In this document: positions 30,899 through 57,896 of the stretch, piece by piece
How positions within the stretch are numbered: the first letter of the stretch is position 1
How the letters are laid out: each line of letters begins with the position of its first letter
NCBI GenBank assembly: GCA_965200245.1
Contig: CBDATS010000008.1
Span: 256,001 to 320,000, forward strand
Length of the DNA: 64,000 nucleotides
Direction of reading: 5' to 3'
DNA from: a bacterium
Lineage (GTDB): Bacteria > UBA8248
Notes under the pieces: generated by a model
Told to the model about the DNA's origin: nothing
What the model saw: only the letters and a program-made list of their open reading frames with translations
Database searches by the model: none
Made by a program: the position numbers and the translations under genes

Positions 30899-30975
30899 GG
30901 GCCTATAGCTCAGTTGGTCAGAGCGCGCGCCTGATAAGCGCGAGGTCCCTGGTTCAAATCCAGGTAGGCCCACCA
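30899..30975 (+). tRNA. tRNA-Ile (GAT)
   Basis: GGGCCTATAGCTCAG...CTGATAA...GGTTCAAATCC...CACCA in the ITS. Confidence 0.97.
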
Positions 30976-31113
30976 TACCGGAATTCCGGAATTGACAGAA
31001 ACGAAACGCATGGCATGAAACGCCTGGAAGTGATGGCGTGGATGGACCGTTGAGCGGAGCCGTGCAGGCTCATCGTCGTCGCGGGTCGTTCCCTGAAGCG
31101 AAATCTGAGATAT

Positions 31114-31189
31114 GGGGATGTAGCTCAGTCGGGAGAGCGCCTGGTTTGCAACCAGGAGGTCGGCGGTTCGAGCCCGCTCATCTCCACCA
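31114..31189 (+). tRNA. tRNA-Ala (TGC)
   Basis: GGGGATGTAGCTCAG...TTTGCAA...GGTTCGAGCCC...TCCACCA. Confidence 0.97.
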
Positions 31190-51430: not shown

Positions 51431-51662
51431 CGAGGGTCTCCTGTATTCATCGAGAGCCTTCTGAAAAAGTGGGGCTATGCTAAAAAGGGGCCATCGTGGT
51501 GTCAAGACCGTCGGGGTGAAAAAGCATGTTTCATCACCGCAATGTATCGGGAGAGGTATGCTTCGGTTTGAAATGTCTTCTCCGCAGGAGTATAAATGAT
51601 GGCGTTTCAAGATTCGCTGCTTCAGGCTTTTTGGCCGCATTCATTTTCAGGAGGACGCATTC

Positions 51663-52163
51663 ATGCCAAGAATGACGGAAAAGATGATCGACTCGGGCGA
51701 TCCCTTCCCGAGTCTCGAGGTGAACCAGGTGGGAGGAGGCAAAATCTCCCTGCCCGGCGATCTCGCGGGCGATTGGGGGGTGGTTCTGCTCTACCGCGGA
51801 CACTGGTGACCGTACTGCAAGCAGCAGCTTACGGCCTTCGACAGGGCGGCGAAGCTCAAGGAAGAAGGCGTCAAAGTTGTTGCAGCCTCCGTGGACATGG
51901 AGGAGAACGCGAAGGGAACGGTCGAGGAATGCGGCCTCAGCTTCCCCGTCGGCTATGGTTTGGATAACAAGCATATTTCAGAACTTACGGGGTGTTTCTA
52001 CGAAGAAAAACGCCAGATCATCCACAGCACGGGCTATGTCTTGAAGCCAGATGGAACGGTGGCCGTCGCCGTCTACAGCACTGGCCCCATCGGCCGCCTC
52101 GTGTGGCAGGATGTGTTGGGCCTGGTTCAGTTCTACAAGAAGATGATGGCGTCCCAGAACTAG
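51663..52163 (+). CDS. Peroxiredoxin-like (AhpC/TSA) selenoprotein, motif YRGHW-U49-PY-C, 166 aa
   Basis: AGGAGG and ATG 51663 read GDPFP...VVLLYRGHW, then in-frame TGA 51807-51809, PYC, continuing into ORF 51891..52163. Confidence 0.9.
51826..51856 (+). promoter_or_regulatory. Putative SECIS element
   Basis: AGCTT-acg-GCCTT-CGAC-AGGGC-ggcg-AAGCT, with the apical loop 29 nt after the UGA and G at loop position 2. Confidence 0.5.
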
Positions 52164-52176
52164 CGCATCTTTTTCG

Positions 52177-52216
52177 AACACCCCCTCGTTTATCCTCTTC
52201 GAGGGGGTGTTTTTTA
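52177..52216 (+). terminator. Rho-independent terminator between the two Prx-like genes
   Basis: AACACCCCCTCG...CGAGGGGGTGTTTTTT. Confidence 0.8.
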
Positions 52217-52317
52217 TGTGCAGGTTTGGAGGGATTTTTTTATGGCCTCGCAGGAGAGATAACATCGCAGGCGAGTGATACGATCACATTCATCATCACG
52301 AGAAAACGGAGTCCATC

Positions 52318-52845
52318 ATGCCGAAAGTGAACCAGTACTTTCTCGACACTGGGGATGATTTCCCGAATCTTGAAATTCCCAAGGTAGGCGGCGGAACCAT
52401 CACCCTGCCCGATGACTTGCTCGGTTCGTGGGGCGTCGTCCTTTTCTACCGCAGCCACTGGTGACCCTACTGACTCGCACAGATGGCGGGATTCTCCCGG
52501 GCGGGAGAAAGATTGGAAGCTGAGGGTATCAAGGTGGTGGCGGCGTCCACCGACCCGGAAGAGGAAGCACTGCAGTCCATCGAGGCGAGCAAAGTGAATT
52601 TTCCGGTGGGGCACAGTCTCGATCCCGCGCGTATCTCGGAAACGACGGGGGCCTTCTACTCGCCCGAGGCGGGCGAGAAGCCCAGGCCGTTTCTTCACGC
52701 GACGAACTTTCTGCTTTCACCTGACGGCAAGGTGAACATTTCGCTCTATAGTTCAGGTCCCCTGGGGCGGCTCGTCTGGCAGAATGTCATCCAGGCCGTA
52801 CAGTTCCGAAAAAAGCGCATGGCGGCCGTGCAGGCGCAGCAGTAG
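52318..52845 (+). CDS. Peroxiredoxin-like double-selenocysteine protein, motif FYRSHW-U49-PY-U52, 175 aa
   Basis: ATG 52318 with a GGAG RBS. In-frame TGA at 52462-52464 and 52471-52473 lie exactly at the U and C positions of the upstream paralogue; the frame continues into ORF 52483..52845. Confidence 0.8.
52492..52509 (+). promoter_or_regulatory. Putative SECIS element
   Basis: TTCTCCC-GGGC-GGGAGAA, a 7-bp stem with a G-led loop 34 and 25 nt after the two UGAs. Confidence 0.65.
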
Positions 52846-53285
52846 TCGAACCACAACGGGCCGGAGGGGTATCTCCCTCCGGCCCGTTGTGGCGGTTGCG
52901 AATTTTTCAGGCGCTTGGTCACCTCGTCTGCGTCGGGCGCCTTGTTGTAGTCTTGATCCAGAGTGCCGTCGCCTGCGGGGCTTTTGACGGCGAAGAACTT
53001 CGCGGGTCCTTCGGTGATATGGATACCGTGACGTGTGTTTCTGGGAATATGTACCAGATCGCCGGGGCCGACCTCGTGGACCTCATCCCCACAGATCATG
53101 TTCATCTTGCCTTCGAGCATCAGGATGTACTGCTCCTCGTTGGGATGAAAGTGGGGTGGTGGGCCGTCGCCTTGGGGATAAATCACCCAGCCCACTTTCA
53201 TCAACTCTCCCGCTGTCGCGTGGTTTACGGCAGGACCCACCGCCGAGGATCCTTGGGGCAGGTCTTCCATTTTATAAAAGGGCAT
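52746..53285 (-). CDS. Cupin-domain protein with an apparent C-terminal extension
   Basis: PPPHFHPNEEQ...IPRNTRH. Similarity to its paralogue ends near 52900. Confidence 0.85.
   Translation of the reverse strand: MPFYKMEDLPQGSSAVGPAVNHATAGELMKVGWVIYPQGDGPPPHFHPNEEQYILMLEGKMNMICGDEVHEVGPGDLVHIPRNTRHGIHITEGPAKFFAVKSPAGDGTLDQDYNKAPDADEVTKRLKNSQPPQRAGGRYPSGPLWFDYCCACTAAMRFFRNCTAWMTFCQTSRPRGPEL
52851..52892. terminator. 18-bp perfect inverted repeat between convergent genes
   Basis: CCACAACGGGCCGGAGGG-GTATCT-CCCTCCGGCCCGTTGTGG. Confidence 0.7.
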
Positions 53286-53302: not shown

Positions 53303-53728
53303 CTAGAAGTTGTCCTGCAAGGTGGATTCCAGTTTCTCCCGCGCCTCGTCGGCATCTTCAGCCTTGTTGTAATCTTGATACAGATCGCCGTCGCCCGCGG
53401 GACTTTTCACCGTGAAGAAGGCGAAAGGACCTTTCGTGATGCGGAGGCCGTGGCGCTCGTTGCGGCGTATGTGTACCAGATCGCCGGGTATGACAATGCG
53501 AGTCTCCTCCCCCAGAATCACGTTCGCCTCGCCCTCCATCACGAGAAGAAATTGCTCCTCGTTCGGGTGATAGTGTGGTGGCGGGCCGCCGTCTGCGGGG
53601 TAGGTGATCAGCCCCGCTTTCATGAGTTCACCGGCCACGCTTTGCGTCTGGGCCTTGCCCATGTCGATATGCCTGGTTTCCATCTCGGATATTCGGTAAA
53701 ACGGCAAGTTCAGGTTCCTCCCTTTCAA
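53303..53728 (-). CDS. Cupin-domain protein (tandem paralogue)
   Basis: PPPHYHPNEEQ...RNERH and VKSPAGDG..QDYNKA are shared with the neighbour. Confidence 0.88.
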   Translation of the reverse strand: MKGRNLNLPFYRISEMETRHIDMGKAQTQSVAGELMKAGLITYPADGGPPPHYHPNEEQFLLVMEGEANVILGEETRIVIPGDLVHIRRNERHGLRITKGPFAFFTVKSPAGDGDLYQDYNKAEDADEAREKLESTLQDNF

Positions 53729-57804: not shown

Positions 57805-57896
57805 GGAGAGGTGGCCGAGTCCGGTTTAAGGCGGCAGACTCGAAATCTGTTGTGCAGGTAACTGCACCGGGGGTTCAAATCCCTCCCTCTCCGCCA
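57805..57896 (+). tRNA. tRNA-Ser (CGA)
   Basis: GGAGAGGTGGCCGAG...GCAGA-CT-CGA-AA-TCTGT, long variable arm, GGTTCAAATCC and 3' GCCA. Confidence 0.95.

Follow-up and report, generated by a model that had tools for sequence, protein, structure and literature searches.

A peroxiredoxin-like gene with two in-frame UGA codons: a well-supported two-selenocysteine member of a catalogued family

The locus considered here raises the question of how two TGA codons lying only 9 nt apart in one reading frame are to be read. From ATG 52318 of the window (the whole stretch of 64,000 nucleotides that was analysed), the frame reads MPKVNQYFLDTGDDFP...WGVVLFYRSHW-TGA-CCC-TAC-TGA-LAQMAGFSRAGE... when TGA is translated as selenocysteine (Sec, U). 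The present analysis gives good support to the view that this frame, called gene B in the following, is a genuine two-Sec selenoprotein gene belonging to a family that has already been catalogued. The features of the locus are as follows.

51663..52163, forward strand: gene A, a tandem paralogue of 166 aa with the motif W-U-P-Y-C (from translation, Pfam AhpC-TSA and orthologue copies)
52191..52217, forward strand: terminator-like hairpin followed by a T-run, between genes A and B (a chance-level Rfam alignment falls on the same stem)
52308..52311, forward strand: GGAG, a Shine-Dalgarno-like motif of gene B, 6 nt before ATG 52318 (read from the sequence; function putative)
52318..52845, forward strand: gene B, encoding a 175-aa peroxiredoxin (Prx)-like thiol:disulfide oxidoreductase selenoprotein with the motif W-U-P-Y-U (from translation, Pfam AhpC-TSA and an AlphaFold model)
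52462..52464, forward strand: UGA1, corresponding to Sec49, which matches the first Cys of WCPYC and, in the Prx TxxC motif, the Thr
52471..52473, forward strand: UGA2, corresponding to Sec52, aligned with the second Cys of WCPYC, which is the position of the Prx peroxidatic Cys
52474..52490, forward strand: hairpin H1, a stem of 5-6 bp with a CAGAU-like loop, immediately 3' of UGA2 (from changes on both sides of the stem at three of six pairs)
52492..52509, forward strand: hairpin H2, UUCUCCC / GGGC loop (52499-52502) / GGGAGAA, the proposed SECIS (from conservation, folding and bSECIS constraints)
52851..52892, no strand assigned: perfect inverted repeat of 18 bp just past the gene B stop, possibly a bidirectional terminator (read from the sequence)

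Read through both TGA codons, gene B ends at TAG 52843-52845 and comprises 175 residues, including the two U. The ORF list made with translation table 11 splits the same DNA into a 48-aa head (52318..52464) and a 120-aa tail (52483..52845), and inspection of the sequence upstream of ATG 52483 showed no Shine-Dalgarno motif. The full-length frame put forward in the original prediction is confirmed by the translation, and it recurs in 20 of 38 orthologues.

Gene A, which lies upstream of gene B and encodes a protein 53% identical to its product, has TGA (51807-51809) and TGC at codons 49 and 52, the positions homologous to the two TGAs of gene B. Pfam AhpC-TSA matches both proteins well above its cut-off of 26 bits, with 69.4 bits for gene B (residues 12-139) and 67.7 bits for gene A. 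Each of the 38 gene B orthologues adjoins a copy of gene A, and all 37 A copies that were extracted carry UxxC. The terminator-like hairpin at 52191-52217 separates the two genes, yet one contig from an RNA library (X6, 51617-52809) spans both of them. A scan of the whole genome for other in-frame U..U pairs with open flanks passed 94 frames, among which, judged by eye, only gene B is protein-like.

The 38 orthologues were obtained from a search of 41 relatives and 51 Nitrospinota genomes. Codon 52 is TGA in 20 of them, TGC in 17 and TGT in one; at codon 49, every one of the 36 intact orthologues has TGA. The alternation is thus exclusively between TGA and TGY, as had been proposed as a check on the Sec reading. 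The UxxU form occurs in five genera (8 of 22 copies in g1, 4 of 5 in g2, 1 of 1 in g18, 4 of 4 in g17 and 3 of 3 in g22), and UGA2 is consequently not a mutation private to one genome. The two basal genera have UxxC (g20, 2 of 2; g21, 1 of 1). One g1 genome (G015) yielded an A-type copy only, and four genomes were without a match at E <= 1e-25. A scan of metagenome contigs, using the pattern W-U-P-Y followed by any TGN at codon 52 and by the H2 hairpin, returned 17 contigs, with TGA at codon 52 in 14, TGC in two and TGT in one; the frames of all 17 stay open to the contig limits.

A maximum-likelihood tree was computed with codon 52 masked and was rooted on the A copies. On this tree the Fitch minimum is seven U/C changes from a Cys root, corresponding to one gain and about six reversions, although the exact number is soft because several g1 nodes are weakly supported (42-77%). 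The sister sequences L025 and L039 (88% support) differ at this codon, TGC in one and TGA in the other. UxxU accordingly arose once from UxxC in this Nitrospinota family and has reverted several times since. Two gene B copies are damaged, and both are UxxC: G008 (L046) has an in-frame internal deletion that leaves 128 aa, and G017 (L045) has a frameshift after about residue 117. These two were left out of the codon alignments and trees. Damage was seen in none of the 20 UxxU copies, every one of which has an open frame of 172-177 aa.

These data bear directly on the possibility that the TGA at codon 52 is a TGC-to-TGA nonsense mutation that makes gene B a pseudogene, or else an error of sequencing or assembly. 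The splitting of the gene by table-11 ORF calling is what such a reading would lead one to expect, and the truly broken orthologues G008 and G017 lend it some colour, though both are UxxC. It is contradicted by the recurrence of TGA, which 20 of the 38 orthologues (five genera) and 14 of the 17 metagenome contigs carry, by the intact frames of all 20 UxxU copies and by the substitution pattern. When the eight g1 UxxU copies are compared with one another (28 pairs), the median dN/dS downstream of codon 52 is 0.090, at dS values of up to 1.62, and the value for the 48-codon head is 0.107; the frame after UGA2 is under strong purifying selection. Independent sequencing runs likewise agree on both TGAs. 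Runs from a second study carry the locus, namely a DNA run labelled as sponge metagenome (X4) and the RNA-Seq libraries X6 and X7, and the sole difference between their contigs and the window is T>C at 52350. Lack of read support for the TGA had been named in the original prediction as grounds for refutation; independent DNA and RNA-library contigs carry both TGAs, and UGA2 is unchanged in runs X1, X4, X6 and X7. The pseudogene or sequencing-error reading is effectively refuted, and the probability that we leave to it is negligible.

The contigs from the RNA libraries are short and limited to the A-B pair (51617-52809, 51626-52633 and 52616-52861), whereas the DNA contigs extend beyond it. We regard this as a weak hint of transcription, not as proof. 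The X7 contig has a loose end at 52861, after which its next letters match the window some 50 nt further on (to about 52912). It skips half of the inverted repeat that follows gene B, which could reflect a variant or an artefact of assembly at the hairpin.

The genome is equipped for Sec decoding. Its assembly (3.68 Mb, 15 contigs, 95.8% complete) contains selA (572.7 bits), selB (391.9 bits) and selD (338.6 bits), all above the curated cut-offs, together with a tRNA-Sec of 75.9 bits (gathering score 47), which ARAGORN calls SeC(tca) with an 8-bp acceptor stem. The complete set of selA, selB, selC and selD, whose presence had been named as a check, is therefore found above cut-offs. The selA and selB genes have no internal stops. 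The selD gene (G000:C8:72779-73741, reverse strand) contains one in-frame TGA and probably encodes a SelD that is itself a selenoprotein. TGA ends 1252 of the 2510 open frames of at least 300 aa and is the commonest stop; since it serves as the normal stop for half of the long frames, it is not reassigned in this organism.

It is conceivable that one or both UGAs are decoded as something other than Sec, either as Cys through a SECIS-dependent tRNA-ReC (selC*) or as Trp or Cys by near-cognate read-through. According to a study of UXXU hydrogenases, tRNA-ReC is enriched in genomes that encode them, where either UGA might then be Cys (PMC13582414), and the frequent U-to-C reversion described above indicates that Cys is tolerated at position 52. 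The tRNA content of the present genome points the other way. Of the 48 tRNAs reported by ARAGORN, one is a tRNA-SeC(tca) and one a tRNA-Cys(gca) of ordinary type (75 nt), and all 15 sub-threshold Rfam matches to tRNA-Sec are ordinary tRNAs. A search for tRNA-ReC with ARAGORN and Rfam gave nothing convincing in this assembly, from which, at 95.8% completeness, a tRNA may be missing. The two odd ARAGORN calls, a 91-nt 'tRNA-Pyl(cta)' at G000:C8:91646-91736 and a 93-nt tRNA with a two-base anticodon at G000:C4:1003962-1004054, have weak stems and look like false positives. We consider non-Sec decoding to be very unlikely.

It can be mentioned here that weaker thioredoxin- or Prx-like matches in the relatives (e.g., G005:C194:7816-8199 and G013:C4:2355073-2355429) also contain one or two in-frame TGAs in many cases. 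These suggest large selenoproteomes, in line with the ranking in BSepDB, which places Nitrospinota-labelled genomes among the most selenoprotein-rich bacteria (PMC13326102).

Sec insertion at two UGAs calls for a recoding signal, and the best candidate is the hairpin H2. Its 18 nt are identical in all 20 UxxU orthologues, and the six codons that it covers (FSRAGE) have a third-position entropy of 0, compared to a gene mean of 1.15 bits, making this the lowest six-codon window of the gene. Its stem comprises 7 bp (6 bp when folded by computer) and its 4-nt loop starts with GG; the folding energy is -9.9 kcal/mol, and the apical loop follows UGA1 at a distance of 34 nt and UGA2 at 25 nt. The published bSECIS model specifies an apical loop of 3-9 nt, a stem of 4-16 bp, a G in the first two loop positions, a distance of 16-37 nt from the UGA and a folding energy of -7.5 kcal/mol or lower (PMC13188914). 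Counted on the sequence and the computed fold, H2 lies within every one of these limits for both UGAs. The spacing of E. coli-type SECIS elements is much tighter, which counts against two insertions 9 nt apart from a single hairpin.

Conservation of H2 extends to UxxC orthologues and to gene A, where a hairpin with an AGGGC loop occupies the same place (about 51836-51854), so that H2 is not tied specifically to the second UGA. At this site the sequences of the basal UxxC orthologues diverge. When single sequences are folded, the 76 nt after the UGAs are no better than shuffles (z of 0.16 for gene B and -1.37 for gene A), and the case for a SECIS accordingly rests on the comparative evidence. 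A scan of positions 51600-52900 with Rfam at E values of up to 10 gave five chance-level matches and no SECIS family, none being expected.

The hairpin H1, located between UGA2 and H2, shows compensatory changes across genera, with C-G, G-C, A-U and G-U at columns 18/24 and with C-G and G-C at columns 15/27 and 13/29. The two-helix structure composed of H1 and H2 is 90.5% paired, compared to 51-70% in slid controls, and 0 of 500 shuffles reach 90.5%, although an alignment of related sequences can outdo all shuffles even where no structure exists. H1 was also considered as a canonical bSECIS for UGA1, and this was rejected: G is missing from the first two positions of its loop, and its distance from UGA1 is 15 nt.

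A further alternative is that UGA2 acts mainly as a selenium-dependent attenuator, such that the main product would be a 51-residue peptide, with the full-length protein made only when Sec-tRNA is plentiful, or with the tail produced from ATG 52483. Sec insertion is generally inefficient, and two consecutive events multiply the loss; in addition, H1 could serve as a pause site right after UGA2. Such a role is difficult to reconcile with the purifying selection that acts on tail and head alike (the dN/dS values given above). Moreover, 14 of the 20 UxxU copies have Leu in place of M56, the residue encoded by ATG 52483, which means that a separate tail has no conserved internal start, and the missing Shine-Dalgarno motif before 52483 adds to this. 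Finally, a redox domain deprived of its CxxC equivalent has no evident use. We consider attenuation as the main function of UGA2 to be very unlikely.

On the basis of the above results, we conclude that gene B very probably encodes one full-length protein of 175 aa in which both UGAs are read as Sec by SelA, SelB, SelD and tRNA-Sec, with H2 as the most likely signal. In the mechanism that we propose, the CxxC redox pair of a thioredoxin/peroxiredoxin-fold protein would be written as two UGA codons 9 nt apart, the Sec machinery would decode both, and the coding-region hairpin H2 would act as a single pre-existing SECIS for the two codons. With both UGAs within reach of H2, one TGC-to-TGA change might have been enough to create UxxU. 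The product would then alternate between a diselenol and a diselenide formed within the molecule, and would serve as a thiol/selenol-disulfide oxidoreductase or as a non-canonical peroxide reductase.

A bolder form of the proposal would have one coding-region SECIS, invariant over at least five genera, drive two successive SelB-dependent Sec insertions three codons apart, with the covarying H1 providing a pause or spacer for the reloading of SelB. The product would contain a true diselenide centre of very low potential, and one-base changes would toggle it to a selenenyl-sulfide (UxxC), perhaps with selenium supply. This scenario is tentative, and we put its chances somewhat below even.

The AlphaFold model of the gene B product (pLDDT of 92.9, pTM of 0.90) puts U49 just ahead of a helix beginning at residue 50, the arrangement found in CxxC proteins of the thioredoxin fold. 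The top PDB folds for this model are peroxiredoxins, the best being Bcp4 (3hjp) with a TM score of 0.77. When the protein is aligned to 7kuu with HMMER, the peroxidatic Cys is matched by U52 and the TxxC Thr by U49, while R45 takes the place of the Prx Pro (-7) and A128 that of the Prx Arg. The canonical Prx motif is PxxxTxxC, accompanied by a catalytic Arg in the strand after the active site. The candidate assignment as a canonical peroxiredoxin was rejected, as the Pro at -7, the Thr at -3 and the Arg are all absent in gene B and the NCBIfam Prx equivalogs score far below their cut-offs. PrxU, which has TxxU, was rejected as well (NF040737, 18.7 bits against a cut-off of 270). Compared to PrxU and to Prx/AhpC/Bcp, gene B has the common fold and has U52 at the peroxidatic Cys/Sec position, but it has Sec in place of the TxxC Thr, and the Pro at -7 and the catalytic Arg are not conserved. 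Because these canonical residues are missing, peroxidase activity is uncertain. The most economical reading is a putative diselenide-forming oxidoreductase.

The family to which this protein belongs can be named. Two reviews tabulate a PF00578 Prx-like thiol:disulfide oxidoreductase with the motif 'UxxC, UxxU' and the type member WP_010940744.1 (PMC9312934, PMC13188914). In these tables the row is credited to the reviews' reference 12, and the 2026 review adds a count of 1-2 Sec (PMC9312934, PMC13188914). Gene B has the PF00578 domain and UxxU at the CxxC-equivalent site, and by the domain and motif criteria of the tabulated entry it is a member of this family, the type member entering the comparison by description only. 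It also displays the properties expected of a bacterial selenoprotein, namely Sec-decoding genes in the genome, a Sec/Cys pair, a frame conserved on both sides of the UGAs and a hairpin within the bSECIS constraints. The likeness to the tabulated family extends to the Cys homologues and the downstream bSECIS-type hairpin, and both motif forms occur at the present locus, UxxC in gene A and UxxU in gene B. The GOS study reports UxxU also in a distant Prx-like 2 family (PMC2398784).

The novelty implied by the original prediction was therefore overstated: the protein family and its two-Sec form are already catalogued in the tables of PMC9312934 and PMC13188914, and gene B is no new kind of system. 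In those tables UxxU appears as an entry only, and what the present analysis contributes is the Nitrospinota lineage, the history of gain and reversion, the invariant SECIS candidate within reach of both UGAs and the covarying H1. A literature search gave BSepDB and unrelated papers and no paper on this protein in Nitrospinota, although the supplements of BSepDB and of the reviews may list these genes.

The comparison with SelL that was part of the same prediction holds in part. SelL is a eukaryotic thioredoxin-like UxxU selenoprotein with a diselenide bond, and it uses a 3'-UTR SECIS that imposes no spacing limit. The UxxU at the CxxC position of a thioredoxin fold is common to both, so that, by analogy, a diselenide centre would be the natural expectation for gene B. 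The families are different, and the SECIS candidate of gene B is in the coding region, 25-34 nt from the UGAs. Membership in SelL or its relatives was rejected on the score of NCBIfam NF040769 (SelL_rel_redox), 27.7 bits against a cut-off of 120; SelL is thus an analogue of gene B only, and the likeness stands as analogy, not as kinship.

The Cys-form homologues annotated as 'peroxiredoxin' or 'peroxiredoxin family protein' (e.g., from Streptomyces, Promicromonospora and Pseudonocardiales) have about 158 aa and the motif WCPYC. They are 46-53% identical over some 90% of the length and have the same fold and motif position; they differ in having Cys at both sites with no in-frame UGA and in lacking the five-residue insert of gene B (the EAGEK region). 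In a 45-sequence alignment that includes the Cys homologues, the positions W48, C49, P50 and C52 are invariant.

A parallel in terms of decoding comes from the UXXU hydrogenases, for which one SECIS serving both UGAs is raised as a possibility only (PMC13582414). Both systems are bacterial, with UGAs three codons apart and one conserved downstream SECIS that has a G in the apical loop, and in both of them Sec and Cys types occur intermingled in the tree. The hydrogenase is not related to the gene B protein, and the site in question serves there as a metal ligand. The enrichment of tRNA-ReC in the hydrogenase genomes also has no counterpart found in the present 95.8%-complete assembly. The 20 UxxU and 18 UxxC orthologues, related by one gain and several reversions, constitute a clean natural series that bears on the question raised in that study of whether one bacterial SECIS can serve UGAs three codons apart (PMC13582414). 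Gene B is of interest mainly as a tractable natural model of tandem UGA decoding; if the bolder form of the proposal is true, this small and soluble protein would be the simplest natural system for testing such decoding in bacteria.

The reading also has consequences for annotation. The closest database proteins are fragments of 100-122 aa, and the three that were aligned start at the Met after UGA2 or two residues before it, from which it follows that routine gene calling hides gene B. The expectation that standard annotation would miss the gene proved correct, as public gene calls cut such genes to C-terminal pieces of 100-122 aa. Automated calls in this lineage systematically reduce these genes to C-terminal stubs, and their correct reading matters for the annotation of selenoprotein-rich Nitrospinota-labelled genomes.

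The surroundings of gene B comprise cupins, a cyclase, an alpha/beta hydrolase, a creatininase and Band 7 proteins, and no redox partner genes were found in this gene neighbourhood. One cupin frame (52746-53285, reverse strand) overlaps the 3' end of gene B in antisense by about 100 nt. Its C-terminus is about 40 aa longer than that of the neighbouring paralogue (53303-53728), and the extension, which crosses the inverted repeat at 52851-52892, may not be real. Elsewhere in the window, a tRNA-Ser(cga) is located at 57805-57896, and a tRNA-Ile(gat) and a tRNA-Ala(tgc) lie side by side at 30899-31189, as in the spacer of an rRNA operon.
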